This document shows positions 6,150 to 52,230 of a DNA stretch of 64,000 nucleotides, piece by piece. The notes below the pieces were generated by a model, which did not search any database, was not told where the DNA came from, and worked only from the letters and a program-made list of their open reading frames with translations. The stretch's first letter is position 1, and every line of letters begins with the position of its first letter. The translations under genes were made by a program, and so were the position numbers. This DNA is from an uncultured bacterium (GTDB taxonomy: Bacteria; Krumholzibacteriota; Krumholzibacteriia; JACNKJ01): assembly GCA_963695095.1 (NCBI GenBank), contig CAVOFT010000001.1, forward strand, positions 2,976,001 through 3,040,000, in the 5' to 3' direction.

Positions 6150-6185
6150 GGGGACTCCTTGCCGGAGGGCGGCGTCGCCGCCATG

Positions 6186-7020: not shown

Positions 7021-8218
7021 CTACTTGATGACGCCCAAATCCTTGCCCACGGCCGTGAAGGCCGCGATCGCCTTGTCCAGCTGCGCCCGGTCGTGGGCCG
7101 CGGAGATCTGCACGCGGATGCGGGCCTTGCCCTGGGGCACCACGGGGTAGAAGAAGCCGATCACGTAGATGCCCTTGGCCAGCATGGCCTCGGCGAACTG
7201 CTGGCTGAGCTTGGCGTCCCCCAGCATGATGGGCACGATGGGGTGCACGCCGGGCACGATGTCGAAGCCGGCGGCGGTCATCTTCTCGCGGAAGTACTTG
7301 GTGTTGGCCTCGGTCTTGTCGCGGAGCGCCGTGCTGGCCATGATGATCTCGAGCGTCTTGAGCGCCGCGGCGACGATGGCCGGCGCCACGGTGTTCGAGA
7401 ACAGGTAGGGCCGGCACCGCTGGCGCAGCAGGTCGATGATCTCCTGGCGCCCGGTGGTGAAGCCGCCCGAGGCGCCGCCCAGGGCCTTGCCGAGGGTGGA
7501 GGTGATCACGTCCACGCGGCCGAGCACGCCGCAGTGCTCCACGCGTGCCGCGGCCGGTCGGGCCGAAGAAGCCGGTGGCGTGGGAGTCGTCGACCATGAC
7601 CATGGCGTCGTACTTGTCGGCGAGGTCGCAGATCTTGTCGAGCTGGGCGACGGTGCCGTCCATCGAGAAGACGCCGTCGGTGGCGATCATGATGCGCTTG
7701 GCGCCGGCCGCCTTGGCCTCGTCCAGCTGGGCCTTCAGGTCGGCCATGTCGTTGTTCGCGTAGCGGTAGCGCTTGGCCTTGCAGAGGCGGATGCCGTCGA
7801 TGATCGAGGCGTGGTTGAGCGCGTCGCTGATGATCGCGTCCTCTTCGCCCAGCAGCACCTCGAAGAGGCCGCCGTTGGCGTCGAAGCAGGCGGCGTAGAG
7901 GATGGTGTCCTCGGTGCCGAAGAACTCGGCGATCTTCGCCTCGAGCTCCTTGTGGATGTCCTGGGTGCCGCAGATGAAGCGCACCGAGGACAGGCCGAAG
8001 CCGTGCGTGTCCATGCCGGCCTTGGCCGCCTCGATGATCTCGGGGTTGTTGGACAGGCCCAGGTAGTTGTTCGCGCAGAAGTTCAGCACCTCGACGCCCG
8101 TGTTGAGCTTGATGGAGGCCTTCTGGTCGCTGACGATGATCCGCTCCCGCTTGTAGAGCCCCGCGGCCTCGATCTCGGCCAGCGTGGTCTTCAGCTCGGT
8201 GCGCACTTTGTCGAACAT
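7021..8218 (-). CDS. kbl: Glycine C-acetyltransferase (2-amino-3-ketobutyrate CoA ligase); frameshift near 7545
   Basis: [49 protein letters not shown] in one frame; [37 protein letters not shown] in the next. Confidence 0.92.
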
Positions 8219-16481: not shown

Positions 16482-16537
16482 CGCTTCCACGCAGGCTCCT
16501 TCCGCGGCGGGCTGGGCCCTGCCGGCGCTCCGGCGGC

Positions 16538-16760: not shown

Positions 16761-16860
16761 AAATGTCGGCACTTACCCCGCTCTGCCGACATTTCGCGTT
16801 GACAGCGGCTCAGATACCCGACGCAAAATGTCGGCATGACTCGTCAGAGTGCCGACAAAA
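16761..16860 (+). promoter_or_regulatory. Two inverted-repeat operators AAATGTCGGCA-N12/13-TGCCGACA flanking a TTGACA -35
   Basis: IR1 16761-16794, TTGACA 16799-16804, IR2 16826-16860 overlapping the abiEi start. Confidence 0.65.
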
Positions 16861-17475
16861 CGAGGCAGCCGAAGGGCGCCGCCGATCCGCTGGAGCTCCT
16901 CCGTGCAGCGGGTCTCGGCGCCTTCTTCCGGCCGAGCCAGCTCGAAGCAGGCGGGCCTCACCCGCGATCGGCTGCCGGCGCTGCTGCGGTCGGGCCGGAT
17001 CGAGCGCGTCGGCCGCGGGCTCTACCGCTTCGCGGACGCCGAGCCCAGCGCGGACTACTCGGTCGCCATGGCCTGCGCGCGGGTGCCCACCAGCGTGGTC
17101 TGCCTGCTCACCGCGCTGCGCATCCACGAGATCGGCACGCAGGCGCCGGCGGCGGTGTGGCTCGCGATCCCCCACAAGGCGCGGGTGCCCCGCCTGCGCG
17201 AACTGAAGCTGCGGGTCGTGCGCTTCAGCGGCAGCGCCTGGACACTCGGCGTCGAGGACACCGCGTTCGAAGGCGTGCCGGCGCGCATCACGTCCCCCGC
17301 GCGAACGGTGGTCGACTGCTTCCGCTTCGAGCGCCTCCTTGGCCCGGAAGTGGCAATGGAGGCGCTACAGGACGGCCTGAGGCGGCGCAAGTTCACGATC
17401 GCCGAGCTGTCCCGTATCGTTCAGGTCCTCCCGTCTCGCCGCCTGAGTGCGGCACTCGACCTGCGGTCGATCTGA
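16836..17475 (+). CDS. abiEi: Type IV TA antitoxin, AbiEi family transcriptional regulator; frameshift near 16950
   Basis: FFRPSQLE / GLTRDRLPALLRSGRIERVGRGLYR wHTH, VVCLLTALRIHEIGTQAP.AVWLAIP, ITSPARTVVDCFRF. Confidence 0.85.
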
Positions 17476-17659
17476 GGCGCTGCCGGCGAGTGGGCTAATG
17501 GGTCAGTTTGCAAGCGCGGTCAATCGGTTGGCTTGGAATGCCTTGAAGGCGGCACGTAGGTTGCGACGGGTTCCGCTTCTGCTGTAGAATACGGTCGAGA
17601 TCGGCGAGGCGGCCCGATTTCCCCCTTCCCTCCCGCCTCCCCGAATCGGAGGGGTTGCT

Positions 17660-18223
17660 TTGACGCCACTGAACCCATACGTCTTCGATTTCCGCAAGGC
17701 GCTTCAGGCAACTGCAGTACTGGTGCGAGCGGATTCCGGCTCCGCGCCGTCATCTTACCTGCGCATTCTCAAACTCCTGTATATCGCCGAGCGCCGCTGC
17801 ATTGAGCAGCGGGGAGTTCCGATTTCCGGGGACCGCTTCTTCGCGCTTGAGAAGGGGCCGGTCAACCACCACGTGATGAATCTGATCAAGAACCGCCATG
17901 ATCGCTCTGCCGAGTGGTTTGGATTCATTGAAACCGACCAAACCAAAATCAAGATCGTGCGCGATCCAGGAAACGGAGCCCTAAGCCAGTTCGAGATTGA
18001 CGCGCTTCAGTGGGCAGTATCCCAGTACTCAAGCATGGACGAATGGGACATCGTTGATGCCACCCATGAGTTTCCCGAATGGAAGGAAACCTACCCCGGC
18101 GATAGCCGAGCCGCGGAGATCCCGTTTGAGCTTATCCTCAAGAAGGTGGGCTGGACAGAGGCCCAAGCCAGGGAACTGATCCAAGAGGCAGAGCGGGACA
18201 GCGAGCTCTCCAAGTTCCTTTGA
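17660..18223 (+). CDS. Panacea (DUF4065/SocA-like) antitoxin
   Basis: YLRILKLLYIAER, PISGDRFFALEKGPV, DIVDATHEFPEWK; lower GC3. Confidence 0.8.
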   Translation: MTPLNPYVFDFRKALQATAVLVRADSGSAPSSYLRILKLLYIAERRCIEQRGVPISGDRFFALEKGPVNHHVMNLIKNRHDRSAEWFGFIETDQTKIKIVRDPGNGALSQFEIDALQWAVSQYSSMDEWDIVDATHEFPEWKETYPGDSRAAEIPFELILKKVGWTEAQARELIQEAERDSELSKFL

Positions 18224-18619
18224 GCCCAGGCGGGCAAGCGATTCGACTTGGGACCGCCTTCTACTTCCAGGCAAGGTCCAGCCCCGCGCCCCACCTGTAT
18301 GTCGTGATTTCAGATCCGGCCGACAATCCCGATGGGATTGTCGTCGTAAACGTTAGCACCTTCAGGCCTTACAAGGATCCGAGCTGTATTCTGGAGCGCG
18401 GAGAGCACCCCAGGATAACGCGGAGAAGCTGCATCGAGTACGATCGGGCCAGAATCCCAAGCATTGAGCGCATAGAGAACGGGCTTGCATCTGGAGCACT
18501 CAGGGCTGTCGAAGACATGCCCGCCCCGACCTTGCAGAAGATCCACTACGGAGCGAGGATCACCAACAGGCTCCAGGGCGAAGCGGTGGCCATCCTCGAA
18601 GTCCCAGGGCCTCATCTAG
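18220..18619 (+). CDS. Putative PemK/MazF-fold toxin coupled to the Panacea antitoxin
   Basis: Start overlaps antitoxin stop; PHLYVVISDP..DGIVVVNVST...DPSCILERGEHPRITRRSCIEYDRAR; probable extra C near 18604 gives ...EVQGLI-TAG at 18619. Confidence 0.6.
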
Positions 18620-18666
18620 CCGGGGCACACCTTCACTTCACCGCGCGCGGCTACCCCTTGCCAACC

Positions 18667-18680
18667 CGCCCCCGGGGGCG
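18667..18680. repeat. Palindrome CGCCCCCGGGGGCG copy 5
   Basis: Exact 14-mer at the right edge of the TA islet. Confidence 0.9.
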
Positions 18681-18716
18681 GCACACTGGGGGCCCCTCTC
18701 CGGAAGGAGCGACGCC

Positions 18717-18965
18717 ATGCCCGAGCCCAAGATCGCCGCGCGCAAGCCCGCCGTGCTCGAACTCGCCGCCGGCACGCACGCCTGGTGCGCCTGCGGGGAG
18801 TCCAAGAACCAGCCCTTCTGCGACGGCAGCCACAAGACGACGGCCTTCCGCCCGCACGTGTTCACGCTGGCGGAGCCGAAGAAGGTGGCCCTGTGCCAGT
18901 GCAAGCACACGGGCGGGCTGCCCTTCTGCGACGGCGCGCACAAGAGCCTGCCGGCCGAGGACTGA
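18717..18965 (+). CDS. CDGSH iron-sulfur domain protein (two CDGSH motifs)
   Basis: WCACGESKNQPFCDGSH and LCQCKHTGGLPFCDGAH; AAGGAG RBS. Confidence 0.93.
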   Translation: MPEPKIAARKPAVLELAAGTHAWCACGESKNQPFCDGSHKTTAFRPHVFTLAEPKKVALCQCKHTGGLPFCDGAHKSLPAED

Positions 18966-18999
18966 GTCGTGGGTTGCTTGGCCGCACGCGTAGGAGGCC

Positions 19000-19774
19000 G
19001 TGGTGCTGGGTTTTCTCGCCGATAGCTGTTGCAGTCCGACGCTGATGCCGGCCGGGCCGAGCTTCGACCCGTGGCTGCTCCTCGGCACGGGGCTGACGAT
19101 CAGCCTCGGCCACTGCATCGGCATGTGCGGGCCGCTGGTGGGCGCCGTGGCGATGGCGCAGCCCGAGGGGGCGCGCAGCGCGCGGCGGCTCGTCCCCGGC
19201 TTCCTGCTCTATCATCTGGGACGCGTGGGCGCCTACGCGCTCATCGGGCTGGCCCTGGGCCTGGTGGGCTCGGCCGCGGACCTGGCCGGGCAGGGCCAGT
19301 GGCTGCGCGGCGGGCTGTCGCTGGCGGTGGGTCTGGCGATGGCGCTGCTCGGGCTCGGCCTCGGGCGGCTGGCTGCCGGCGCGGCACTGGCCGGGCGGCG
19401 CGCGGCTCACGGGCCTTGTAGTGACGCGCTTCCGGGCCTTGATCGGGCGGGGCGGCTTGCTTGGGAAGTTGGGCCTGGGCGTCGCCAACGGCTTCCTGCC
19501 CTGCGGGCCGGTCTACGTGGTGGCGCTCGGGGCGATGGCCGCGGGCAGTCCCTGGCGCGGCGCGGGGGCCATGCTGCTCTTCGGCGCGGGGACGGTGCCG
19601 GTGATGCTGGCCTTGTCCCTCGGCGTCGGGCGCCTGAGCCCGCGCGTGCAGGGGCGCTTCAATCGCGTCGCGGCCGTGCTGGTGCTGCTGATCGCGGCGC
19701 AGCTCCTGCTGCGGGGCGCGGCGGCGTTTGGGTGGGTGGGGCATTTGAGGTTCGGGGAGGTTGTGGTTTACTAG
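19000..19774 (+). CDS. Sulfite exporter TauE/SafE-like (DsbD_2) membrane protein; frameshift near 19400
   Basis: GHCIGMCGPL, LLYHLGRVGAY, then NGFLPCGPVY, MLLFGAGTVP in a second frame; AGGAGG RBS. Confidence 0.82.
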
Positions 19775-19870
19775 TGAATCGATTCCTGCGCGAGATCCAG
19801 GTCGGGTAGATTATATGGATTGCGAAGAACGCCTTGTGGAATGATCTCGGCACCAACTCTGGAGGTGTCC

Positions 19871-21778
19871 GTGCAGCTCTACAGTGGCATGTCCGCCGAC
19901 TTCATGCGCGCTGCTACTCGCAATCAGATCGCCGGCATGCTGAAGCAGGCTTTCTTCGCCTACTACCGCTACGAGTCGGGCGAGGCCGAAGTCCGCTCAT
20001 GGCAGAACTCCCTGCGTGCGGTCACGGACGTCTTCGAGGACGCGAGCCTCACTGATCACGGCGTGTTCCTGGAGTACCAGTTGCCGCTCACCTCTCGCCG
20101 GCTGGACTGCTTGGTCTGCGGGCAGGACACGAGCCGGCGCGATCGTGCCGTGCTCATCGAGCTGAAGCAGTGGGACCGCTGCAGCGAGACCCCCGGCGAG
20201 GACTTGGTGTGTACATGGGTGGGGGGTGCAGAGCGAGACGTGCTGCACCCCTCGGTTCAAGTGAGGCAATATCACCGCTACCTCGCAGACACGCACACAG
20301 CCTTTCATGAGGGAGCCGCGCCAGTCCTGCTCGACTCCTGCTCCTACCTGCACAACTACCAAGCGCTGGAGGGCGATCATCTGTTCGCCCCCAAGTTCGA
20401 GCAGATCCTAGCCGTCAGCCCGGCCTACGCGGCTGACGACTTCGACGCGATCAGCGGCTACCTGCGCGATCGCCTGCAGGCGGGGCAAGGACGGGAGGTC
20501 CTCGATCGCGTCGCACAGAGCCAGTACCGACCCAGCAAGAAGTTGATGGATCATGTAGCCGGCATGATCCAGGGCAACCCAGCTTACGTCCTCCTGGACG
20601 AGCAGCAGGTGGTCTACCGAAAGGTGCTGGCCTGCGCCGAGGCGGGCATGGGCGACCGGCGGAAGACAGTGGTCATCGTCCGGGGCGGGCCGGGCACGGG
20701 CAAGTCGGTGATCGCCCTCAACCTGATGGCCGACCTGTTGCGGAAGGGACGCAACGCACACTACTCCACGGGCTCCAAGGCCTTCACTGAGACACTGCGC
20801 CGGATCGTCGGCTCACGGGGCTCGGCGCAGTTCAAGTACTTCAACAGCTATGCCGAGGCCGGCGCCGGTGACATCGACGTGCTCATCGCCGACGAGGCAC
20901 ACCGCATCCGCGAGACCAGCAACAACCGCTTCACCCCGAGGGTCATGCAAAGCACGAAGCCTCAGATCGAGGAGCTCGTCGAAGCTTCCCGGATCGGGGT
21001 GTTCTTTGTAGACGACCGGCAGGTGGTGCGGCCGAACGAGATCGGATCGTCGGAGTTCATCCGCGCCCACGCCAGCCGGCTGGGCTGCCGGATCCTCGAC
21101 TTCGAGCTGGAGGCACAGTTCCGCTGCGCGGGTTCGGACGGCTTCGTACGCTGGCTGGAGAACACGCTCGGCCTCGTGCGCACCGCCAACGTACTCTGGG
21201 ACGGCAGCGAAGGCTTCGACTTCCGTATCCTCGACTCGCCGCAATCCCTCGAAGACGCGATCCGCGCCAAGTCCGTGGAGGGATTCTCAGCGCGCATGTC
21301 GGCAGGCTTCTGCTGGCCGTGGTCCAAGCCGAACTCGGACGGCACGCTCGTGGAGGATGTCCGGATCGGCGAGTACCGGCGCCCCTGGAACGCGAAGTCG
21401 AGCGCGGGCCGCCTGGCGGCCGGGATTCCGAAGGAAACGCTCTGGGCACACTTGCCCGGCGGCATCGATCAGGTGGGTTGCATCTACACGGCCCAGGGCT
21501 TCGAGTTCGACTACGTCGGCGTGATCTGGGGCCCGGATCTCCGCTACGATCTGGAGAAGAACGCCTGGATCGGGGATCGCGAGCAGTCCTGCGACACGGT
21601 CGTGAAGCGCTCGGGCGATCGCTTCGCGGAACTCGTGAAGAACACCTACCGCGTCCTGCTCTCGCGGGGGCTCAAGGGCTGCTACGTGCACTTCATGGAC
21701 CGGGAGACCGAGCAGTTCATCAGGACCCGCCTGGAGACGACGGCGGCAACAACGGACGGCGGCGGGCATGCGCACTGA
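19871..21778 (+). CDS. DUF2075 (Schlafen group 3-like) helicase with N-terminal PD-(D/E)xK-like nuclease domain
   Basis: RRLDCLVCG..VLIELKQW, HPSVQV, Walker A GGPGTGKS, IADEAHR, QFRCAGS, CIYTAQGFEFDYVGVIWG, NTYRVLLSRG; GGAGG RBS before GTG. Confidence 0.88.
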   Translation: MQLYSGMSADFMRAATRNQIAGMLKQAFFAYYRYESGEAEVRSWQNSLRAVTDVFEDASLTDHGVFLEYQLPLTSRRLDCLVCGQDTSRRDRAVLIELKQWDRCSETPGEDLVCTWVGGAERDVLHPSVQVRQYHRYLADTHTAFHEGAAPVLLDSCSYLHNYQALEGDHLFAPKFEQILAVSPAYAADDFDAISGYLRDRLQAGQGREVLDRVAQSQYRPSKKLMDHVAGMIQGNPAYVLLDEQQVVYRKVLACAEAGMGDRRKTVVIVRGGPGTGKSVIALNLMADLLRKGRNAHYSTGSKAFTETLRRIVGSRGSAQFKYFNSYAEAGAGDIDVLIADEAHRIRETSNNRFTPRVMQSTKPQIEELVEASRIGVFFVDDRQVVRPNEIGSSEFIRAHASRLGCRILDFELEAQFRCAGSDGFVRWLENTLGLVRTANVLWDGSEGFDFRILDSPQSLEDAIRAKSVEGFSARMSAGFCWPWSKPNSDGTLVEDVRIGEYRRPWNAKSSAGRLAAGIPKETLWAHLPGGIDQVGCIYTAQGFEFDYVGVIWGPDLRYDLEKNAWIGDREQSCDTVVKRSGDRFAELVKNTYRVLLSRGLKGCYVHFMDRETEQFIRTRLETTAATTDGGGHAH

Positions 21779-22328
21779 CGACACCTGGATCCAGACCTAC
21801 CGCGGCTGCCAGTTCTGGCCGATGGACCCGCAACCGGCGGACATCGACATCCGTGATGCGGCCCACTCGCTCAGCCTCCTCTGCCGCTTCAATGGCCACT
21901 GCCGGGAGTTCTACTCGGTCGCCGAGCACTGCGTGCGCGTCTCGCGCGCATGTGCGCCGGAGCATGCCCTCTGGGGGCTGCTTCACGACGTTGCCGAGGC
22001 CTACATCGGGGACATCGCCAGGCCAGTCAAGCAGCAGTTCCCAGCTATCGCGGAGATGGAGGATCGCCTGCTCAAGGCAGCCGCGGAGCATTTCGGCCTG
22101 GCTTGGCCGATTCCCGACGAGGTGGGCAAGATCGATGAGATCTTGCTGGCCACCGAGGCCCGCGACCTCATGGAACAGCCCCCTGCCGATTGGAAGCTGA
22201 GCGCTTTGCCTCTCACGGATCCGATCCGCCCGATGACACCGCTCCAGGCCGAGCAGGCGTTCCTCGAGCGCTTCGCCAAGCTCACAGCCAGCAGGAATGC
22301 CCCGCAGCTGGCGCAGGGTCGCCCATGA
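21768..22328 (+). CDS. HD-domain phosphohydrolase, YfdR/YfbR-like 5'-deoxynucleotidase family
   Basis: CRFNGHC..FYSVAEHCVRVS, GLLHDVAEAYIGDI, DEILLATEARDLM. Confidence 0.85.
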   Translation: MRTDDTWIQTYRGCQFWPMDPQPADIDIRDAAHSLSLLCRFNGHCREFYSVAEHCVRVSRACAPEHALWGLLHDVAEAYIGDIARPVKQQFPAIAEMEDRLLKAAAEHFGLAWPIPDEVGKIDEILLATEARDLMEQPPADWKLSALPLTDPIRPMTPLQAEQAFLERFAKLTASRNAPQLAQGRP

Positions 22329-23257
22329 CCGGCTGGCTGGCGAACACGGATACGGACTGGTTCCAGTTCCTCCGTGGCTTGGAGGATGTCGAAGAGGTCA
22401 ACTTCTGGCAGCCGTCGGGAGGCCGGGGCTTCCACGTCCTGAAGCCGGGCGAGCCGCTCCTCTTCAAGCTGAAGTCGCCGCACAACGTCATCGCGGGCTA
22501 CGGGCACTTCGTGCGCCACTCCGTCCTTCCGGCGTGGCTCGCCTGGGACTCGTTTGGCGTGACCAACGGCGCGCCTGATTACGCCGCGATGAGGACTCGC
22601 ATCGAACGCTATCGCTCCGGCCAGCCCAAGGATCCTGCTGGCAACTACGCGGTCGGTTGCTTGGTCCTGGCCCAGCCTTTGTTCTTCCCGAGGGAGCTCT
22701 GGATTCCCCAGCCGGCCGACTGGCCCCGAAACGTCGTGCAGGGCAAGAGCTACGGCCTCGACCGAGGGGAGGGGCTGCGCATCTGGGATGCCTGCCAGGC
22801 GGCAACCGCAGCCTTGAGCAAGGTGCTCCAGCTTCCCCTGGGGCGGGAGAACGAACGGCGCTATGGCGAGCCTCAACTCATCGCGCCGCGACTTGGCCAG
22901 GGGAGCTTTCGTATCGTGGTGCTGGAGAGCTACCGTCGCGCCTGTGCGGTTTCCACTGAGCACTCCCTGCCCGCGTTGGAAGCGGCGCACATCAAACCCT
23001 TCGCCGAGGGCGGCGAGCACAAGGTCGGCAACGGACTTCTGCTTCGCAGCGACATCCATCGCTTGTTCGACAAAGGCTACCTAACCATCACTCCCGGCCA
23101 TAACATTGAGGTGAGCCCTCGCTTGCGCGAGGACTTCAGCAATGGGCGCAGTTACTATCCCTTTCATGGGGAGAAGATCGCCTTGCCAGCCGACAGGGCG
23201 GAGCATCCAGATCCGGCAATGCTCCATTGGCACAACGAGAAACGGTTCCTTGGATGA
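22325..23257 (+). CDS. HNH endonuclease, putative restriction enzyme (COG3440-like)
   Basis: NTDTDWFQFL..EVNFWQPSG N-terminus; RLGQGSFRIVVLESYRRACAVS, LEAAHIKPF, NGLLLRSDIHRLFDKGY, LHWHNE; ATGA overlap. Confidence 0.88.
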   Translation: MTGWLANTDTDWFQFLRGLEDVEEVNFWQPSGGRGFHVLKPGEPLLFKLKSPHNVIAGYGHFVRHSVLPAWLAWDSFGVTNGAPDYAAMRTRIERYRSGQPKDPAGNYAVGCLVLAQPLFFPRELWIPQPADWPRNVVQGKSYGLDRGEGLRIWDACQAATAALSKVLQLPLGRENERRYGEPQLIAPRLGQGSFRIVVLESYRRACAVSTEHSLPALEAAHIKPFAEGGEHKVGNGLLLRSDIHRLFDKGYLTITPGHNIEVSPRLREDFSNGRSYYPFHGEKIALPADRAEHPDPAMLHWHNEKRFLG

Positions 23258-23370: not shown

Positions 23371-23718
23371 TTGACCAACCCCCACGCCCTCATCCTCATC
23401 CGCACGCTCCACACGACGATCTACCTCGTCATGGTCGCCGCGATCGCCGTCATCTGGCATGCCGCCCTCACCGGCCGCTTCGGCCCCGCGCTCTGGATCG
23501 CCCTCGCGCTGCTCGCCGTCGAGAGCGCCGTCTTCCTCGGCAACGGCCGCCGCTGCCCCCTCACCGCGCTCGCCGTCCGCTACGGCGCCGAGAAGGGCTA
23601 CGCCTTCGACACCTTCCTGCCCGAGCGCGCCACCCGCTACACCTTCCGCGTCTTCGGGACGCTCATGCTGCTCGGCCTCATCGCCCTCCTCCTCCGCTGG
23701 ACGGGCCTCCTCGCCTGA
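23371..23718 (+). CDS. Small membrane protein (about 3 TM)
   Basis: Hydrophobic ORF with NGRRCPLT motif and GAEKG..FDTFLP. Confidence 0.65.
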   Translation: MTNPHALILIRTLHTTIYLVMVAAIAVIWHAALTGRFGPALWIALALLAVESAVFLGNGRRCPLTALAVRYGAEKGYAFDTFLPERATRYTFRVFGTLMLLGLIALLLRWTGLLA

Positions 23719-23796: not shown

Positions 23797-26184
23797 GTGA
23801 TGTGCGGACGGTCGCTTGCGGCATTCTCTATCCTGATGGTTCTTCCGATATCGGCTGCAACCGCAGCCACGATCCACGTCCCCGCTGACCAGCCCACGAT
23901 CCAGGCGGGTGTCGATGCCGCGGCGCCGGGGGACACGGTCCAGCTTGCCGCGATGGTCTTCACCGGCCCGGGCAACACCGACCTCGGCTTCGGGGGCAAG
24001 GACATCGTCCTGCGCGGAGCGGCGCCGCCCGACAGCTCGGCCATCGATGGCGAAGGTCAGCACCAGGGCTTCTACCTCCATCAGGGCGAGACGGCCGCGG
24101 CCCGCATCGAGCGCCTCACCCTCAAGAACATCGATGGCTACGCCTTTCACGCCTACCAGGCCTCGGCCACGCTCGCCGACATCCGCCTCTTCGATTGCGT
24201 GCACGGCGTGGCCTTCCACACCTCGACGAGCGCGGTGCACGGCCTGCTCTGCGTGCGCACCTCCGATGCGCTAGCGGTCTACGCGGCGAGCGCGAGCGCC
24301 ACGGATGTCGACGTGCGCGAGGGCGGCCTCTACAACGCGCTGGACATCAACTCGGGTGCGAGCCTGACCGTGGACGGCCTGCGCGTCACCGGCAGTTACG
24401 CGCGCTATGGCGTGGTGGACTGCGCGGGCACCCTGGTCCTCCGCAACGCCTACTTCAGCGGCAACCGGCTGAGCCCGCTCAATCCGCGGGCTGTGATCTA
24501 CGGCCACGGGGACGGCGCCGCGCTCGACCTGCAATGGGTGACCATCGTCGACAACGCCACCGACGGCATTCGCACCGAGGACGCCTGTGCGCTCACCGCT
24601 CGCAACGTGACGATCGCGCGCACGGGGGGCGAGGGCTTCGAGCTCAGCGCCGAGGGCTCGGCCGACATCGCCCAGGCGATCGTCGCCTTCTCGACGAAGG
24701 TCGGCATCTTCGCCTGGCCGGGCGGCACGGTCACGCTGGCCTGCTCGGATGTCTACGGCAACGCCCTCGGCGACTTCGGCGGCGCGCTCGGCGATCCCAC
24801 CGGCACCGACGGCATGATCAAGGCCGAACCCATGTTCTGTCAGCTCGGCGGCCCCGACCAGCCGCCCACCCTGAGCGTGAACTCGCCCTGCGCCCCGGCC
24901 AACAGCGACTGCGGGCTACTCATGGGCGCCCACGGCACGGCCTGCGATCTCGTGATGGTCACCGTCTCGGGCACCGTCCTCGACCCGGGCAACCAGCCGG
25001 TGGCGGGGGTCGCCATCGAGGGCTTCTACGACCCCTTGCTGACGGACTCCGCGGGGCACTACGCCTTCGACACCGTCCAGGGCTGGACCGGCGTGCTGCA
25101 TCCGGTGCTCATGAGCCTGCACTTCGACCCGGTGGAGCGCCTCATCGGTCCGCTCATCGTCGACTTGCCGAACCAGGACTTCCTCGCCTATGCGCAGACG
25201 GCCATCCGCGTGCCGCAGGACTTCGCCACCCTGGCCGAGGCGCTGGAGTTCGCCCTCGACGGCGACACCGTGCTGGTGGCGCCCGGCGTCTACACGGGGC
25301 CGGCCAACCGCAACCTCAGTTGCGGCGGCAAGGCGATCGCGGTGCTGGGGACAGGGAGCGCCGGGGCCACCATCATCGACTGCCAGGGCCAGGGCCGCGC
25401 ATTCACTCTGCTCGACGGGGAATCGCCGGCCACGCTCATCGGCGGCCTGACGATCCGCAACGGCCACAGCTCGGCCGCGCTCACGCCGCCGTACAAGGGC
25501 GGCGGCGGCATCTACGTGCAGGACGGCTCGCCCACACTCCGCGACCTTGTCATCGAGGACTGCCTCAGCGACGAGGCCGGGGGCGGGCTCCTGCTGAAAA
25601 GCTCGTCCGCCCTCGTGCAGCGCGTGCACTGCCGCGGCAACGAGGCCCCCGGCCTGGAGGGCATCGGCGGCGGCGCCTTCGCGATCGGCGGCGCCCCCAC
25701 CTTCCGCGACTGCCTGTTCACGGACAACTTCGCCTTCCGCTACGGCGGCGGCCTGCACATCGCCAACGGCACGATCCGGGTCGAAGGCTGCACGGTGGTC
25801 GGCAACACGGCGGGCTGGAGCGGCGGCGGCATCAGCAGCCACAAGTCGAGCAATCCGCCGCAGCTCAGCATCACGCGCAGCCTGATCGCCGACAACCACG
25901 CCACGAGCGGTGGCGCGCTCTTCAACCACGCCCTCTGGCCGGCGCCCGCCTACGACTGCTGCCTCTTCTGGGGCAACGACTCGCCACGCGTCTGGGGCAG
26001 CATCAACGATCCCGTCGGGACGAACGGCAATTTCGCGGCCGATCCCCTGCTCTGCGATCCCGGCGGCGGCGACTTCGGCCTGCAGGCGGGATCGCCCTGC
26101 CTGCCCGAGAACAATGGCTGCGCTGTCCTGATCGGCGCTCTCGGCCAGGGCTGCGACACGCTGCGCGCGGGAGGTCAGCGATGA
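23797..26184 (+). CDS. Secreted right-handed beta-helix repeat protein (two modules)
   Basis: Signal peptide; IHVPADQPTIQAGVDAAAPGDTV and IRVPQDFATLAEAL..GDTVLVAPG; GGG/GGA repeats; ADPLLC..DFGLQAGSPCLP; AGGAGG RBS. Confidence 0.8.
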   Translation: MMCGRSLAAFSILMVLPISAATAATIHVPADQPTIQAGVDAAAPGDTVQLAAMVFTGPGNTDLGFGGKDIVLRGAAPPDSSAIDGEGQHQGFYLHQGETAAARIERLTLKNIDGYAFHAYQASATLADIRLFDCVHGVAFHTSTSAVHGLLCVRTSDALAVYAASASATDVDVREGGLYNALDINSGASLTVDGLRVTGSYARYGVVDCAGTLVLRNAYFSGNRLSPLNPRAVIYGHGDGAALDLQWVTIVDNATDGIRTEDACALTARNVTIARTGGEGFELSAEGSADIAQAIVAFSTKVGIFAWPGGTVTLACSDVYGNALGDFGGALGDPTGTDGMIKAEPMFCQLGGPDQPPTLSVNSPCAPANSDCGLLMGAHGTACDLVMVTVSGTVLDPGNQPVAGVAIEGFYDPLLTDSAGHYAFDTVQGWTGVLHPVLMSLHFDPVERLIGPLIVDLPNQDFLAYAQTAIRVPQDFATLAEALEFALDGDTVLVAPGVYTGPANRNLSCGGKAIAVLGTGSAGATIIDCQGQGRAFTLLDGESPATLIGGLTIRNGHSSAALTPPYKGGGGIYVQDGSPTLRDLVIEDCLSDEAGGGLLLKSSSALVQRVHCRGNEAPGLEGIGGGAFAIGGAPTFRDCLFTDNFAFRYGGGLHIANGTIRVEGCTVVGNTAGWSGGGISSHKSSNPPQLSITRSLIADNHATSGGALFNHALWPAPAYDCCLFWGNDSPRVWGSINDPVGTNGNFAADPLLCDPGGGDFGLQAGSPCLPENNGCAVLIGALGQGCDTLRAGGQR

Positions 26185-27500
26185 AGGCCGCAATCGGCAT
26201 CCTGCTGCTCAGCGCACTGGCGGCGACGGCGCCGGCCGTGGCGAGCGTTTTCCATGTGCCGGCGGAGTACCCCAGCATCCAGTCGGCGCTGGCCGCGGCG
26301 GCCGCAGGGGACACGGTCCTGGTGGCCTGCGGCACCTACTACGAGCACGGGCTGTCTCCGCGCGAATCGTGCCTGATCCGGGGGGAAGGCGGCAGTGCGG
26401 ATTGCGTGGTCATCGATGCCCAGGAGCAGGGCAGTTGCATCATCGCCCAGGCCCGCTACGTGCGCCTGGAGCACCTGACGCTGCGCAATGGCTACTCGAA
26501 CTACCGCGGCGGCGGTCTTGACGCGGGCATCGTTCCCAGCCTGGTGGACGTTGTGGTCGAGAACTGCTTCGCCGCGCAGGATGGCGGCGGAGTCAGCGCC
26601 TCCGGCATCGCTTTCCAGGATCTGGTCCTCAGGAACAACCGCGCCGATCGCGGCGGCGGGCTGTTTCTGCTCGAGTACGGCGGCGCGAGCAGCGGCTTGC
26701 TGGCGGTGGGGAACGAGGCCGAGTCCGGGGCGGCGATCTACATCCAGGACTGCATGTGGCCAAGCAACGCGAAGCTCGATGGCCTCACGCTCGTGGGCAA
26801 CCGCAGCACGGCGGGCGAGGGCATTTTGACGATGTCGGCCATGACCGGCGAATGGGTGAACTGGCTCGCCGTCTCGCGGAGCATCTTCGCCGACAACGAG
26901 GGTTTCGCGCTTGCGTGTCCCGGCGGCTGGTTCAACATGTACGACGTCTCGGACCCGGCCGGCTCGGAGATGGACGCCTTCGTATCCAGCTCCTGCTTCT
27001 GGAACAACTCGCTGGGCGACTTCGGCGGCGAGATCGCCGACCTCACCGGCTTCTACGGCAACCTCTTCGTCGATCCGCGCTTCTGCACGCCGGAGCTGGG
27101 CAACTACGCTCTGCGCGAGGATTCGCCCTGCCTTCCCGAAGGCAACCTCTGCCGGGTGACCATGGGGGCGATCGGCGAGCCCTGCGTGCTGACCGGCGTG
27201 GAGGCCGAAGCCGGGGCACCCGCGGCCTTCCGGGTCGGCAGCTTCCCCAATCCCTTCAACCCCAGCACGCAGATCCGCTTCGTGCTGCCGCGGGCCGCGC
27301 GCGTGAGCCTGCGCGTCTTCGACATCGCCGGCCGCCGCGTGGCCACCCTGCTCGACGGCGCGCGCAGGGATGCCGGCGAGCAGGCGCTGGTCTGGGATGG
27401 GCGCGACGATGCGGGTCAGGCCCTGCCCAGCGGCGTCTACCTCTACCGCCTCGAGGCCGGGGAGCTGCGGGCCACGAGGAAGCTGACCCTGCTCAAATGA
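26181..27500 (+). CDS. Secreted beta-helix protein with FlgD-type CTD
   Basis: MKAAIGILLLSALAATAPAVA signal; FHVPAEYPSIQSAL; FPNPFNPSTQIRF...WDGRDDAGQALPSGVYLYRL...TRKLTLLK; ATGA overlap. Confidence 0.82.
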   Translation: MKAAIGILLLSALAATAPAVASVFHVPAEYPSIQSALAAAAAGDTVLVACGTYYEHGLSPRESCLIRGEGGSADCVVIDAQEQGSCIIAQARYVRLEHLTLRNGYSNYRGGGLDAGIVPSLVDVVVENCFAAQDGGGVSASGIAFQDLVLRNNRADRGGGLFLLEYGGASSGLLAVGNEAESGAAIYIQDCMWPSNAKLDGLTLVGNRSTAGEGILTMSAMTGEWVNWLAVSRSIFADNEGFALACPGGWFNMYDVSDPAGSEMDAFVSSSCFWNNSLGDFGGEIADLTGFYGNLFVDPRFCTPELGNYALREDSPCLPEGNLCRVTMGAIGEPCVLTGVEAEAGAPAAFRVGSFPNPFNPSTQIRFVLPRAARVSLRVFDIAGRRVATLLDGARRDAGEQALVWDGRDDAGQALPSGVYLYRLEAGELRATRKLTLLK

Positions 27501-27742: not shown

Positions 27743-28831
27743 ATGTCTGCCTTCGCTCCACGTTTCACCGTCACGAATCCGATCACGGCGGCGCTCACCG
27801 CCATCGAGCGCGCGCGGGGCTTTCTCGAGGCAGCCAAGCTCTCGGAGGCCTGGATCGCGCGCATGAGCCAGCAGGCCTTGCTGCTAGAGGCCCACCACAC
27901 CACCCACATCGAAGGCACCGCGCTGACCCTGGACGAGGCCCGCCGCCTCTGGACCGGCGAGGCCGTTGCGGAGGCCGATCGCAACGACGTCCGCGAGCTT
28001 CTGAACTACCGGGACGCCTTCGAGCTCGTCTCCGAGTACCTCGGCAGCGGGGACCCGATCACCGAAGGCCTCATCCGGGAGATCCACAAGCGGCTGGTGC
28101 GCGGGGTCCGCGGCGGCGCCGCCCAACCGGGGGCCTACCGCAAGACCCAGAACTACGTGATCAACAGCCGCACGGGCGAGGTCATCTACACGCCGCCTTC
28201 TCCCGAGCAGGTAGCGCCCATGATGGCGGATCTCGTCGGCTGGCTCCGCGACGAGTCCGCAGTGCACCCCGTGCTCGTCGCGGGCATAGCGCAGTTCCAG
28301 CTCGTGCACATCCATCCCTTCGTCGACGGCAATGGCCGCACCTCCCGCCTACTCTCCACGCTCTGCCTCTACCGCGCCGGCTACGACTTCAAGCGGCTCT
28401 TCACACTCAGCGAGTTCTACGACCGCGATCGCAGCGCCTTCTATGCCGCCTTGCAGAGCGTTCGGAAGCAGGGCATGGACCTGACCCCTTGGCTCGAGTA
28501 CTTCGTCTACGGCCTTGCGCAGCAACTCGAGGAAGTGAAGGTGCGGGGTACGGCGGTCATCAGCGCCGACCTTTTAGCGAAGGAGCAGAAGCTCGGCGCG
28601 CGCCCGGCGGCGGTCTTGGCTGCCATCCACGAGGCGGGCAGCATCAGCCTCGGCGAGCTGGAGCCGCTCTTCCCCGATGTCAGTCGCCGCTCCCTCCAGC
28701 GCGACCTGAAGCTGCTCGTGGACCGAGGGTTGATCGTGGCCCAGGGCGCTCCGCAGCTCACGGACCCGAATCGCAGCTACGGGCCCGCGCCGACTCCGCC
28801 GCCGGGACCCTCCGCGGGCCCGCCCCGATAG
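27743..28831 (+). CDS. Fic family protein with internal inhibitory helix and C-terminal HTH
   Basis: [12 protein letters not shown] catalytic motif, TTHIEG inhibitory motif, [30 protein letters not shown]. Confidence 0.92.
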
Positions 28832-29065: not shown

Positions 29066-31723
29066 ATGCCCTCATCCCCCGAGCATCGCGAGGCCCCCGC
29101 GGGCAGCCGAGGCGCCGGCGCCCCCGCCGAGCCGCCCCTGGCCGCCTGCCCCCTGCCCGGGCTCGCGCCGCCTGAACCCACCGAGGCGCAGAAAGCCGCC
29201 TGGCAAGCCGCCCTCGCCGCCGGGAAGTGCCTCCACTGCGCGGGCGAACTCGGCAAGGGCTGGCGCGCCGAGGACGGCCCCTTCTGCTGCCGCGGCTGCC
29301 GCGCCGTCTACGAGCTGCTCCACGGCGAGGGCCTCACGCGCTACTACGACCTGCGCCAGGGCCCACAGGCCCCCGTGCCCAGCCTGCGCCCGGACAGCTT
29401 CGCCTGGCTGGACCGCCTCATCGAAGAGCGCGCCGCGGCTGGACCCGCCCCCGGGGGCGGCCCCGCGGCTGGCCCTGCCGAAGCGGCCGCCGCCGGCCAG
29501 GCCGAAGCCGCCGCGGCGCCCGGCGCCGACCCGCTGCTGCGCCTCACCCTCGACATCCAGGGCGTCCACTGCGCCGCCTGCGTCTGGCTCATCGAGGAGC
29601 TCTTCCAGCGCGAGGCGGCCGGCATCGAGCTGCGCATCAACCCCGCCATCGGCAGCGTGGACCTCACCTGGAACCCGGCCGCGGGCGAGCTCAAGCGCTA
29701 CCTCGCCGAGGTGGAGCGCTTCGGCTACCGCCTCGGCCCCGCGCGCAAGAGCGCCGCCCCGCGCTCGCGCGCGCTGCTCTTCCGCATGGCCGTCTGCATC
29801 GCCGTCGCCATGAACGTGATGATGTTCAGCCTCACCTACTACTTCGGCCTCGCGCCCACGGACGGCGCCCTCTTCCGCTTCTTCGGCTGGCTGAACCTGG
29901 GCCTGGCCACCGTGTCGATGGTCGGTCGGCGGGCCGGTCTTCCTGCGCGGCGCGCCTCGCGGGCCTGCGCCGCCGCGTGGCCCACCTGGACCTGCCCATC
30001 GCCCTCGGCATGACTGCTGGCCTACGCGGGCTCGGTCTACGCCTACTTCGAGCGGCGGCCCGCACGCGGCCTACTTCGACACCCTCACCGTCTTCGTCGC
30101 CCTCATGCTCGTGGGCCGCTGGGCGCAGGAGCGCATCCTCGAGCGCAACCGCAACTCCCTGCTCGCGGGCGGCGGCGCGGACCTGATCACCGCCAAGCGC
30201 CGCGTGGCCGGCGAGGCCCGCCTCGAGGCCGTGGGCGCGGCCGCGCTCCGGGCCGGCGACGAGCTCTGGATCGCCCCCGGCGACCTGGTGCCCGTCGAGG
30301 GCATCCTCCTGCGCCAGGAGGCCGAGCTCTCGCTGGACTGGATCACCGGCGAGTCCGCCCCCGCCCACTTCGCCGCCCGGCGACCGCCTGCCCGCCGGCG
30401 CCTTCAACGCCAGCCGCCAGGGCTTCGCCGTGGCGGCCGCGCGAGGACTTCGCCGACTCGCGCCTGGAGACCTGCTGCGCAGCCGCGAGGGCGAGGGCGC
30501 CTGGCGCCCAAGCTGGTGGCACCGCGTGAGCACGGTCTACGTGACGCTGGTGCTCAGCGCCGCCGCGCTCGGCTTCGCCATCTGGTTCTGGGTGGTGGGC
30601 GACCTGCGCCGCGCCCTCGAGGTGACCGTGGCCGTGCTGGTCGTCACCTGCCCCTGCGCGCTGGGCCTGGCCACGCCGCTGGCCGAGGAGCTGATCCACA
30701 CGGCCCTGCGCCGCCGCGGCGTGTTCCTGCGCACGCGGCAGCTTCCTGGAGAAGGCCCTGCGCGTGCGCAAGGTGCTGCTGGACAAGACCGGCACGCTCA
30801 CGCTCGACCGCCTGCGCCTCGCGCCCGAGTCCCGCCGCGCGCTCTGGGCCCTGCCCGCCGCCGAGCAGGCCGCCCTCTGGACGATGTGCGCGCGCAGCAA
30901 CCACCCGGTGAGCCGCAGCCTCGCCGAGGCCCTGGCGCGCGGGCGGCGGCGCCGGCGGGCCTCGACCCGGCCGAAGCCGGCGATGGCTGGCGAAGAACTG
31001 CCCGGCCAGGGCCTGCGCTGGGCGCCGACGCCGACGGCGAGTACCGCCTCGGCCGCCCGGCCTTCGCGCTCGCCCGCGCGGCCGGTGGCGAACCCGCCCC
31101 CGGGGGCGACTCGGCGCGAAACGCTGCTTCACGCGCGACGGCGCCCTGCTCGCCGCCTTCCGCTTCGAGGAGGACTACAAGCCCGACGCCGCCGCCGAGC
31201 TCGCCGCGCTCTGCCGCCGCAGGGCTACGCGCTGCACCTGCTCAGCGGCGACACGCCAGGCCAAGGTGGACCGCGCCGCCGCGGCGCTGGGCATCCCGGC
31301 GCGAGCAGGCCCACGGCGGCCTCGACGCCCGAGGCCAAGGCCGCGCTCGTGCGCGACCTCGACGCCAGCGACACGCTGATGGTCGGCGACGGCCTCAACG
31401 ACAGCCCCAGCTTCGAGGCCGCCCTCTGCGCCGCCACCCCGGCCGTGGACCGGCCCGTGCTGCCCGGCAAGGCCGACTTCTACTTCCTGGGCGACGGCAT
31501 CGCCGCCCTCCGCCGCGCGCTGGCCGCCGCCGGCCGCCTGCGCGGCGTGCTGCGCGACAATCTCATCTTCGCGCTCGTCTACAACGTGGCCGCCGTGGCG
31601 CTCTGCCTGGCGGGGCTGGTGACCCCGGTCGTGGCGGCCATCCTGATGCCGGTCAGCTCGGTCGGCATCGTCGCCTTCACCGCCTGGCGGCTCTCGGGCC
31701 GGAGGCTGGCATGGATGTCGTGA
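29066..31723 (+). CDS. ccoI: CcoI/FixI heavy-metal P1B ATPase; multiple frameshifts
   Basis: CLHC, FCCRGC..VYELL..GLTRYYDL, GVHCAACVWLIE, AYFDTL, ITGES, VTCPCALGLATP, DKTGTLT, MVGDGLND spread over several frames. Confidence 0.85.
29446..29459. repeat. Palindrome CGCCCCCGGGGGCG copy 7 (inside ccoI)
   Basis: Exact 14-mer in an Ala/Gly/Pro linker. Confidence 0.9.
31095..31108. repeat. Palindrome CGCCCCCGGGGGCG copy 8 (inside ccoI)
   Basis: Exact 14-mer. Confidence 0.9.
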
Positions 31724-31947: not shown

Positions 31948-34297
31948 TGCCGCAGACCCGCACCGTCGTCTACGACGACGACATCGTGCGGGCCTTCTCC
32001 ATCGCCACGATCGTCTGGGGCGCGGTCGCCCTGCTGCTGGGCGTCATCATCGCCACGCAGCTCTCGTTCTGGCAGGCGAACTTCGGCACGTCGCTGGCTG
32101 ACCTTCGGCCGCCTGCGCCCGCTGCACACCAACGCGGCCATCTTCGCCTTCGTCGGCAACATGATGTTCGCCGGCATCTACTACTCCACCCAGCGGCTGC
32201 TGCAAGACGCGCATGGCCTCGGACCTCCTGAGCTGGATCCACTTCTGGGGCTGGCAGCTCATCATCGTGGCGCGCCGCCATCACCCTGCCGCTCGGCCTC
32301 ACCCAGGGCAAGGAGTACGCCGAGCTGATCTGGCCCATCGACATCGCCGTCGCGCGTGATCTGGGTGGTCTTCGCGGTCAACTTCTTCTGGACCCTGGCC
32401 AGGCGCAACGAGAAGAACCTCTACGTCGCGCTCTGGTTCTACATCGCCACCATCGTCACCATCGCGGTGCTCTACATCGTCAACAACCTGCAGCTGCCCA
32501 CCAGCTTCGCTGCACAGCTACCCGATCTTCGCCGGCGTGCAGGACGCGCTGGTGCAGTGGTGGTACGGCCACAACGCCGTGGCCTTCTTCCTGACCACGC
32601 CGATCCTCGGCATCATGTACTACTTCCTGCCCAAGGCGGCGGACCGGCCGGTCTACTCCTACCGGCTCTCGATCGTGCACTTCTGGTCGCTGGTCTTCAT
32701 CTACATCTGGGCCGGCCCGCACCACCTGCTCAACACCGCGCTGCCCGACTGGGCGCAGACGCTCGGCATGGTCTTCAGCCTCATGCTCTGGGCGCCCTCC
32801 TGGGGCGGCATGCTCAACGGCCTGCTCACCCTGCGCGGCGCCTGGGACAAGCTGCGCACCGATCCGGTGATCAAGTTCTTCGTCGTCGGCCGTCACCTTC
32901 TACGGCATGTCCACCTTCGAGGGCCCGCTGCTCTCGATCAAGAGCGTCAACGCGCTCGCGCCACTACACCGACTGGATCATCGGCCACGTGCACGGCGGC
33001 GCGCTCGGCTGGAACGGCTTCATGGCCGCCGGCATGTTCTACTGGCTGGTGCCGCGCCTCTGGAAGCACCAAGCTCTGGTCCACGCGCCTGGCCGACCTG
33101 CACTTCTGGATCGGCACCGTCGGCATCCTGCTCTACGTCGTCGTCGATGTGGATCGGCGGCATCAGCCAGGGCCTGTTCTGGCGCGCCCTGGACGCCGAC
33201 GGCTTCCTCAAGTACCCCGACTTCGTCGAGGGCCTGCTGGCCAGCCGCTGCATGTACCACATGCGGCTGATCGGCGGCTCGCTCTTCTTCCTCAGCTTCC
33301 TGCTGGGCATCGTCAACCTGGTCGATGACCATCCGCCGCGGCAGCAAGGCCACCGTACGAGGTCGACGGTGCCGGCCCTGGCGCCCAGCGGCCCCTCGGC
33401 CTGGAAGCTGCTCTTCGGCGCGCCCGGTGCTCTTCGCCGGCGCGGTGATCATCCTCGCCGTGCTGCTGGGCGTCGCGCGGCGTCATCACCAGCGCCGTGG
33501 CCCTGGCCGGCATCGCGGTGGTGACCATCGCCGCCATCCTCGTCCCTCGGCGCGCAAGCGCGGCTCGGGCGAGAGCTGGCACCGGCTGCATCGGAGGGCA
33601 ACTCCGCTCGCCTTCACCGTGCTGGTGCTGGTGGCCATCCTCGTCGGCGGCATCGTGGAGATCGTCCCGACCGTGGTGATCTCCGAGCAAGGTGCCCGAC
33701 CAGCCGCCGCGGCCGCTGGCCGAGAACCCGCGCATCGCAGCAGCCCTACAGCCCGCTGGAGCTGGAGGGCCGCGACCTCTACGTGCGCGAGGGCTGCTAC
33801 ATCTGCCACAGCCAGATGATCCGCCCCTTCCGCCACGAGACGCTGCGCTACGGCGACTACTCGCGCGCTGGAGGAGTTCATCTACGACCACCCCTTCCAG
33901 TGGGGCTCCAAGCGCACCGGCCCGGACCTGCACCGCGTGGGCGGCAAGTACGCCGAACCTCTGGCACTACCTGCACCTGATCGACCCGCGCTCCACCTCG
34001 CCCGGGCTCGAACATGCCGCAGCTACGCCTGGCTCAAGGACCGACCGCGTGGACTTCGCGGGCACGCGGAGCAAGCTGGCAGACGCTGCGGACGCTCGGC
34101 GTGCCCTACGCCGACGAGGAGATCGCCGGCGCCGCGGCCGACGGCCTCGAGCCAGGGCGCGCTGATCGCGGCCGATCTCGCAGACGCAGGGCGTGACGCT
34201 CGCGCCCGACAGCGAGCTGACGGCGCTGATCGCCTACCTGCAGCGGCTCGGCCGCGGCCCCCAGCCGACCGCCGGACCCGCGCGAGGAGGCGACTAG
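31934..34297 (+). CDS. ccoNO: cbb3-type cytochrome c oxidase subunits I+II, apparently fused; many frameshifts
   Basis: [54 protein letters not shown] (CcoN); [27 protein letters not shown] (CcoO); no clear separate RBS/start for O; alternative start 31947. Confidence 0.85.
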
Positions 34298-51769: not shown

Positions 51770-52230
51770 GCGACCTGCGCGACCTCTACCAGGAGCTGAT
51801 CCTCGACCACGGGCGCAATCCCCGCAACCGCCGCCGCATCGAGGGCTGCGCCGAGGGCCACGCCGGCTGCCGCCGCGCCGAGGGCCACAATCCCCTCTGC
51901 GGCGACAAGCTCACGCTCTACCTGAAGACCGAGGGCGAGCGCGTGGCCGACCTCGCCTTCGAGGGCGCGGGCTGTGCGATCTTCACGGCCTCGTCCTCGC
52001 TGCTCACGGATGCCCTGCGCGGCAAGACCGTCGCCGAAGCGCGGGCGCTCCTGCACGACTTCCTCGCCATGCTCACGGACGAGGAGGCCATGGCCGACCC
52101 CGAGCGGCTGGGCAAGCTGGCCGTCTTCGCCGGCGTGCGCGGCTACCCGGTGCGGGTCAAGTGCGCCGCCCTGGCCTGGCGAACCCTGGAGGCGGCGCTC
52201 GACGGCGCCGCCGAAGCCAGCACGGAGTGA
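51766..52230 (+). CDS. sufU: SUF system NifU-family protein SufU
   Basis: [32 protein letters not shown]. Confidence 0.92.

Follow-up and report, generated by a model that had tools for sequence, protein, structure and literature searches.

Why should a small nucleotide phosphohydrolase be encoded between two enzymes that appear to act on DNA? Three genes in the genome of an uncultured bacterium of the Krumholzibacteriota (GTDB lineage JACNKJ01; GenBank assembly GCA_963695095.1), here called g1, g2 and g3, raise this question. They lie on contig CAVOFT010000001.1 within positions 2,976,001 to 3,040,000 of the forward strand, a stretch of 64,000 nucleotides referred to below as the window, whose own numbering is used throughout. 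We propose, with a probability of roughly 45%, that the trio is one operon that would restrict foreign DNA with modified bases and includes an accessory enzyme for the nucleotide pool. The parts are of known kinds, and the combination is unnamed and rare. It seems to vary a recurring gene arrangement by placing an HD enzyme where a MazG-like one stands elsewhere, because MazG-like genes recur beside g1 homologues and one HD protein is fused to MazG.

The three genes and their predicted products

Positions 19871-23257 hold three intact genes on the + strand, arranged head to tail and overlapping (Table 1). Direct reading of the sequence gives an overlap of 11 nucleotides between g1 and g2 (g2 ATG at 21768, g1 TGA at 21776-21778) and one of four nucleotides, ATGA at 22325-22328, between g2 and g3. 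The GTG start of g1 is accepted because 31 aligned homologues begin at the same M(R/Q)LY(S/A)G, and none of the three genes is broken, since each aligns with its homologues over the full length. The G+C content at third codon positions (GC3) is 0.85, 0.83 and 0.76 for g1, g2 and g3, against 0.94 (19421-19774), 0.98 (23371-23718) and 0.92 (23797-26184) for the flanking genes, and the region as a whole forms a G+C trough of 0.64-0.67 compared with 0.71 for the window. An initial annotation, made from the letters alone, had described three co-directional, overlapping genes with lower GC3 than their flanks and with the motifs IELKQW, GGPGTGKS and DEAH in g1, H...HD in g2 and AAHI...NG..L..D.H in g3. 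The overlaps and GC3 values were verified and every motif is present; the trio as observed there is a real feature.

Table 1. Positions of the trio and its sequence features in the window
Feature	Position	Strand	Remarks
Shine-Dalgarno-like GGAGG	19861-19865	+	5 nt ahead of g1 GTG start
g1, nuclease-helicase (nuclease part putative), 635 aa	19871-21778	+	GTG start; PD-(D/E)xK-like N-terminal domain and DUF2075/SLFN-g3 superfamily 1B (SF1B) helicase
g1 N-terminal domain, residues 1-255, putative PD-(D/E)xK nuclease	19871-20635	+	
g1 DUF2075 / Schlafen group-3 helicase domain	20663-21700	+	Walker A GGPGTGKS 272-279, Walker B DEAH 341-344
g2, YfdR-like HD phosphohydrolase, putative 5'-deoxynucleotidase, 186 aa	21768-22328	+	
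g3, PUA-superfamily reader and HNH, putative type IV modification-dependent restriction enzyme, 310 aa	22325-23257	+	
g3 N-terminal PUA-like (ASCH/EVE-like) domain, residues 1-165	22325-22819	+	
g3 HNH_2 core, residues 207-255	22943-23089	+	H213, H222, N236, H245 invariant

The DUF2075 helicase first named for g1 is borne out by a match of residues 265-610 to Pfam PF09848 (SLFN-g3_helicase, formerly DUF2075; 5.3e-87), and GGPGTGKS and DEAH are invariant in an alignment of 32 sequences. A fold search with the predicted structure of full-length g1 returned SLFN14, SLFN11, RecD2, Dda and Pif1, that is, SF1B-type motors; this search was dominated by the helicase part and did not probe the N-terminal domain. 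For that domain, all of 32 sequences share the residues E40, E68, D79, E97, K99 and Q100, and the AlphaFold model has a helix (38-57) followed by three strands (64-70, 77-85 and 91-99) at a predicted local distance difference test score (pLDDT) of 80-94. Because the invariant residues sit on the helix and the three strands in the expected layout, we read the domain as a putative PD-(D/E)xK nuclease, and the same residues and predicted topology support the nuclease-like part that the initial annotation had given to g1. Pfam searched at E<=10 with the N-terminal 255 residues gave no family, and the Atlas lead to NERD is weak (score 0.84).

Proteins of this architecture are known from phage defence. 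In Nhi of S. epidermidis (SERP2475), lactococcal AbiO, Nhi-like and PADLOC PDC-S41, a DUF2075 SF1B helicase with Walker A/B motifs comes after an N-terminal nuclease of PD-(D/E)xK type, within about 600-650 aa; g1 agrees with them in the helicase and, putatively, in the nuclease. The first three are described as nuclease and DUF2075 defence proteins in the respective reports (Nhi, bioRxiv 10.1101/776245; AbiO, PMC13064643; Nhi-like of Millman et al. 2022, bioRxiv 10.1101/2022.05.11.491447 and 10.1101/2025.07.10.664194). Phages that escape Nhi-like are described as losing a phage DNA methylase (bioRxiv 10.1101/2022.08.27.505566), and such sensitivity to phage DNA methylation fits the company that g1 keeps in the trio. 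PADLOC matches g1 in part, to PDC-S41 (2e-18, in three pieces), AbiO (1.1e-11) and Nhi (4.3e-11), the last two models spanning only g1 residues 238-393. Nhi, AbiO and Nhi-like are single-gene systems, whereas g1 is translationally coupled to HD and PUA-HNH genes. Its family is large, with at least 7,999 homologues and 62-66% identity across phyla, archaea included, and it occurs in a short form of about 625-645 aa, to which g1, having no S24 peptidase domain at its C-terminus, belongs, and a long form of about 805-825 aa. Four of six long proteins scanned (P0248, P0253, P0255 and P0265; about 815 aa) carry a C-terminal Peptidase_S24 domain of LexA/UmuD type, which hints at control by self-cleavage on DNA damage.

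By sequence, g2 is a putative homologue of the YfdR-like HD 5'-deoxynucleotidases. Along its full length it shares 38-42% identity with genes annotated yfdR or 5'-deoxynucleotidase, in agreement with the YfbR/YfdR-type HD enzyme first suggested, and it is up to 52% identical to phage genes annotated as deoxynucleoside monophosphate (dNMP) phosphatase or HD hydrolase. Thirty sequences conserve the HD residues H33, H54, H73-D74, E77, D82 and D133, which we take to correspond to residues of YfbR. Searched against the PDB, the family profile matches 2gz4 (5e-19) and, weakly, YfbR (2paq, 0.009). Family models score below their thresholds, with 21.7 bits for Pfam YfbR-like (cut-off 25.9) and 15.6 for the NCBIfam 5'-deoxynucleotidase (cut-off 122). 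The family numbers 27,423 representatives at E<=1e-3, and homologues of g2 occur in 133 plasmid and 318 phage records. E. coli YfdR and YfbR and the phage dNMP phosphatases likewise consist of one HD domain, about 180 aa long, that shows the pattern H...HD...E....D...D; their genes lie in prophage early or replication regions or by salvage genes, whereas g2 lies between genes for two predicted nucleases. A fusion of HD to DUF2075 was sought among the best 150 HD representatives, where no protein exceeds 505 aa. A Pfam scan of 24 extended HD proteins found one with MazG (P0428), one with endonuclease VII (P0424), one with DUF6378 (P0443) and four with a weak YfbR-like/HD match only, the remaining 17 showing no Pfam family. 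The family further includes proteins of about 390 aa with two HD domains in tandem.

The C-terminal part of g3 matches Pfam HNH_2 (1.6e-12), as expected from the HNH assigned initially, and PADLOC HNH PDLC04132 (1.3e-16); its residues H213, H222, N236 and H245 do not vary among 31 sequences. The AlphaFold model is well defined for residues 1-165 (pLDDT 74-95) and of low confidence for the HNH part. Foldseek places VcaM4I, an EVE-HNH protein (6yex), first at 1.4e-5, followed by ZmASCH (8e-5), af2351 (7e-4) and EVE 2eve (4.5e-3), with YTH and TRIP4-ASCH domains also among the matches; the initial guess of a PUA-, EVE- or SRA-like N-terminal domain thus proved apt. Because these VcaM4I, ASCH, EVE and YTH fold matches are joined to HNH_2, g3 can be read as a PUA-superfamily reader fused to HNH, a putative type IV modification-dependent enzyme. 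Pfam at E<=10 gave no family for the N-terminal domain, and the Atlas leads are weak ("restriction endonuclease" 0.81, DUF365 0.80, EVE 0.78). A phosphorothioate-DNA-dependent restriction endonuclease (NCBIfam NF045808) was considered for g3 and rejected at 66.7 bits against a cut-off of 180; the match covers model positions 164-283, the HNH end only, and leaves out the sulphur-binding part.

The PUA-HNH type IV enzymes of the TspA15I/VcaM4I/CmeDI group and ScoA3V likewise have about 310 aa (VcaM4I 309 aa), an N-terminal PUA reader and a C-terminal HNH. They have no cognate methyltransferase beside them, and g3 is alike, as no methyltransferase domain was found among the open reading frames (ORFs) scanned in 9.5-33.8 kb of the window. 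Such enzymes are described as cleaving DNA with 5-methylcytosine or 5-hydroxymethylcytosine (5mC/5hmC) or N6-methyladenine (6mA), and some modification-dependent restriction genes as adjoining DUF2075 (Lutz et al. 2019, PMC6765204). The sole PDB sequence match of g3 is again VcaM4I (1.1e-6), with similarity confined to residues 182-271 and 18% identity overall. Because only this HNH end aligns, g3 is, at the sequence level, outside the VcaM4I group and in a very large family of its own, with at least 7,109 full-length homologues at about 55% identity across phyla. For the N-terminal domain of g3, Foldseek also ranks ASCH ahead of EVE, the domain present in VcaM4I.

Recurrence of the trio and of nucleotide hydrolases beside g1 homologues

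In order to place the trio among its relatives, an HD profile scan with one genome per species yielded 269 HD loci; we retained the best 80, and 64 of these offer room on either side. By tblastn, homologues of both g1 and g3 lie near the HD gene at one locus, L001, which is one of the 80 and one of the 64. Here the order g1-g2-g3 is as in the window, at 71, 68 and 66% identity, and the surroundings differ. Directly upstream of its g1, L001 carries an additional HNH_2 gene (1-855; PADLOC HNH 4.1e-20; 35% identical to the C-terminus of g3), and downstream of the trio a MazF/PemK toxin gene (5822-6160). Close relatives of g1 and of the HD protein come from source contigs of equal size (8993; 8684), as do close relatives of the HD and HNH proteins (1758; 3484), which suggests four further cases of the trio. 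A quick tree that kept every row of 108 HD proteins places the window, L001 and these four together in one set of 16 rows, for which the Shimodaira-Hasegawa-like approximate likelihood ratio (SH-aLRT) support is 96. No multi-gene PADLOC v2 model fits the trio, and g2 matches none of the PADLOC families at E<=0.01, the dGTPase and dCTP deaminase models for depletion of deoxynucleoside triphosphates (dNTPs) included; this agrees with the initial annotation, in which the trio was not recognised as a named system.

The HD survey also showed a deoxynucleoside kinase gene (PF01712) adjoining the HD gene, on either side, in 14 of the 80 genomes (L002, L007, L010 and 11 others). As a pair, kinase and nucleotidase would work on one and the same deoxynucleoside/dNMP step.

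The company of g1 homologues on plasmids is a second line of evidence. Homologues occur on 72 plasmid records, and in six of the 13 contexts inspected a MazG-like nucleoside triphosphate (NTP) pyrophosphatase gene lies within 4 kb, so that the pairing of DUF2075 with MazG, which the initial annotation had mentioned, turns out to be real. The MazG-like gene is adjacent to the DUF2075 gene in Priestia (L082, MrcB_N-MazG-DUF2075) and Halalkalicoccus (L083, MazG-DUF2075-EEP, with an EEP nuclease) and to a broken DUF2075 copy in Marivirga (L097); it is one gene away in Bacillus (L089), where an HNH gene stands between the partners (MazG-HNH-DUF2075), at 0.7 kb in a Halomonas record that carries no annotation (L096) and at 3.7 kb in Nocardiopsis (L086). 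Five of the six MazG-like proteins are mutually 34-45% identical, across five phyla, and the MazG-HNH-DUF2075 block is found at >=80% coverage in 12 Bacillus plasmids. Genes with DUF3883/NOV_C lie beside g1 homologues in three further contexts (L084, L087 and L095); together with MrcB_N, HNH and EEP they are putative modification-reading or other nuclease partners. The Bacillus HNH protein was considered as a counterpart of g3 and is not homologous to it. Our literature search found no paper naming both MazG and DUF2075.

These plasmid neighbourhoods resemble the trio in that a small nucleotide hydrolase lies by a g1 homologue, often with a third gene for a nuclease or reader. They differ from it in that the hydrolase of the trio is of HD and not of MazG type and lies downstream of g1, whereas MazG lies upstream. 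A tblastn search with four MazG-like queries found no MazG-like sequence in the window, and the HD gene holds the neighbouring position. The earlier suggestion that HD replaces MazG gains support from the single HD-MazG fusion among the 24 extended HD proteins and is plausible.

Proposed mechanism and competing explanations

From these observations we infer a defence function in which the three activities would be coupled through modified DNA. The PUA-like domain of g3 would read a modified base and its HNH domain would nick or cut the DNA. As a Nhi-like, ATP-driven SF1B helicase with a PD-(D/E)xK nuclease, g1 would unwind and degrade the targeted DNA. The role of g2 would then be to dephosphorylate deoxynucleotides, possibly modified ones, that are freed from degraded DNA or made by the phage. 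This could deny modified or excess deoxynucleotides to the phage for re-use and could also keep modified nucleotides out of the host DNA, so that the host avoids its own enzymes. In doing so, g2 would take the role of the small MazG-like NTP pyrophosphatase that stands beside g1 homologues elsewhere. MazG-type enzymes follow a "house-cleaning" logic.

Several observations lead to this proposal. We read the genes as one operon because g2 overlaps each of its neighbours at the start and stop codons and the lowered GC3 is common to the trio, and because L001 repeats the order g1-g2-g3 at similar divergence in a different context. The mechanism is suggested because MazG-like genes and reader or nuclease genes recur beside g1 homologues; its direction to modified DNA, because phages escape Nhi-like by methylase loss and PUA-HNH enzymes cut modified DNA; and its place in defence, because genes for AbiEi, a Panacea-domain protein and a SoFic-like protein lie nearby.

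A different view is that g1, as a Nhi-like protein, and g3, as a type IV PUA-HNH enzyme, are independent neighbours in a defence island and that g2 is a salvage, housekeeping or phage-derived passenger transcribed with them. We consider this possible, if somewhat unlikely. A number of findings weigh against our proposal, and several of them favour this view. The three families are large and mostly found apart. Homologues of g1 and g3 are absent within 6 kb from 79 of the 80 HD loci, the four further cases of the trio are suggested only by equal source-contig sizes, and the best 120 homologues of g1 and the best 120 of g3 have only one source-contig size in common (125820). The trio does recur in L001, and at one of 80 HD loci plus four inferred cases it comes close to not being co-conserved, the outcome that the initial annotation had said would count against a shared system. 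Plasmid homologues of g3 stand without DUF2075 or HD in all four contexts examined. Because one HD locus in 80 repeats the trio and these four g3 homologues are alone, the trio forms a narrow and probably mobile combination of three families usually found apart. Other HD genes of the g2 family mostly have housekeeping neighbours or belong to phages (the 318 records); the commonest neighbour is the deoxynucleoside kinase (14/80 loci by clustering, two representatives confirmed by Pfam), and L003, in the same 16-row set as g2, has its HD gene among TldD/PmbA, STAS and methyltransferase genes. Thus g2 could be an ordinary salvage gene. The kinds of protein to which g1 and g3 belong are already described as single-gene defence, Nhi, AbiO and Nhi-like on the one side and PUA-HNH type IV on the other, and the accounts of Nhi and Nhi-like cited above present them as single-protein systems. 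The nuclease assignment of g1 comes from motifs and predicted topology, without a domain-level fold match, and a search around the operon for a sigma-70 promoter or a terminator detected none. Against g2 as a passenger stand its overlaps with the genes on both sides, the composition common to all three genes, the joint move of the trio into a different context in L001 with matched divergence, and the recurrence of a nucleotide hydrolase, MazG, by g1 homologues in five phyla.

The initial annotation had proposed instead that g2 is an effector of nucleotide depletion, with g1, g3 or both sensing infection and g2 draining the dNMP or dNTP pools. The HD catalytic residues of g2 are intact, annotations of its homologues name a 5'-deoxynucleotidase or a dNMP phosphatase, and phage T5 Dmp, a 5'-deoxynucleotidase, is described as able to reshape dNMP pools in infection (bioRxiv 10.1101/2024.12.20.629578). 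This mechanism nevertheless seems to us improbable. As a single-domain enzyme of 186 aa and YfdR type, with no regulatory domain and no PADLOC match, g2 is unlike the known dNTP-depleting defence enzymes; the presence of its family in 318 phage records fits poorly with an anti-phage effector, and the two predicted nucleases of the operon already provide effectors. For nucleotides, YfdR is moreover reported to have affinities far below YfbR's (PMC4776307), and a literature search on deoxynucleotidases in anti-phage defence found no such system described in the papers retrieved. The same report on YfdR points to yet another role, since it describes YfdR as binding DnaA and overexpression of the yfdQRST cluster as inhibiting initiation (PMC4776307). 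With its 38-42% identity to annotated yfdR, g2 might similarly work by protein binding, on the model of E. coli YfdR and domain I of DnaA, and block a phage or host initiator or helicase loader while the nucleases act. The invariance of the HD metal and catalytic residues in 30 homologues argues for catalysis, and we regard binding as very improbable.

The proposal of a modification-directed operon with a nucleotide-pool accessory can be extended beyond this locus, in a form that we hold to be doubtful. A widespread, unnamed class of defence directed at modified DNA might be built around nuclease-DUF2075 (Nhi-like) helicases, which would be joined by a nucleotide-pool "sanitiser", in most cases MazG-like and here an HD dNMP phosphatase, and often by a separate modified-base reader nuclease (PUA-HNH, MrcB_N or DUF3883). 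By destroying modified deoxynucleotides, whether freed from the phage or synthesised by it, the hydrolase would deprive the phage of nucleotides and also prevent the host from placing the target mark in its own DNA.

Genomic setting and implications

The genes with links to defence around the trio are interspersed with ordinary chromosomal genes. An AbiEi antitoxin gene lies at 16849-17475 (PADLOC 5.9e-53, Pfam AbiEi_4), with no AbiEii toxin gene recognised next to it. It is followed by a SocA/Panacea antitoxin-domain gene at 17660-18223, within the lowest-GC stretch of the region (17500-18500, GC 0.58), and by an ORF at 18220-18993 that matches no family; a gene for a CDGSH iron-sulphur protein is found at 18717-18965. 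Downstream of the trio by 4.5 kb, a Fic-domain gene (27743-28831; PADLOC SoFic 6.8e-63) encodes a protein that may act in defence as a single-gene system. Another gene for an HNH endonuclease (36824-37900; PF01844, 3.7e-10) is positionally unrelated to the trio. As to a prophage or integrative element as origin, there is no tRNA gene in the window, no integrase among the scanned ORFs and no pair of flanking direct repeats resembling attachment sites. The GC-rich palindrome CCGCCCCCGGGGGCGG recurs at 16537, 18666, 28905 and 29432-29476, between genes or at gene ends, and may be an element like the repetitive extragenic palindromic (REP) sequences or a terminator hairpin.

Several neighbouring genes seem split or truncated across frames (19000-19809 / 19421-19774; 32537-33819; 23797-27500; 7021-7542; 50995-52230). 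The N- and C-terminal parts of DsbD_2 lie in different frames, COX1/FixO is in pieces and the FlgD_ig tail of a beta-helix protein is in a different frame from the rest; Aminotran_1_2 is represented by its C-terminal half only, and the match to Aminotran_5 starts from profile position 127. Such breaks suggest pseudogenes or indel errors of the assembly; the trio itself is intact.

What the locus means depends on g2. If g2 is a mere passenger, two known single-gene systems simply stand side by side here, as is ordinary in a defence island. If it works within the operon, a DNA-targeting defence would be coupled to the clean-up or denial of modified nucleotides, unlike the known bulk depletion of dNTPs. 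This would explain the small hydrolases, MazG-like or HD, that lie by Nhi-like helicase-nucleases in Bacillota, Bacteroidota, Actinomycetota, Gammaproteobacteria and Halobacteria, and would give experimental access to the question of how type IV-like systems escape self-targeting once they have degraded modified DNA. It would also give a defined role to the YfdR family, which is common in phages. The partnership of Nhi-like helicase-nucleases with nucleotide hydrolases is the point most worth pursuing.

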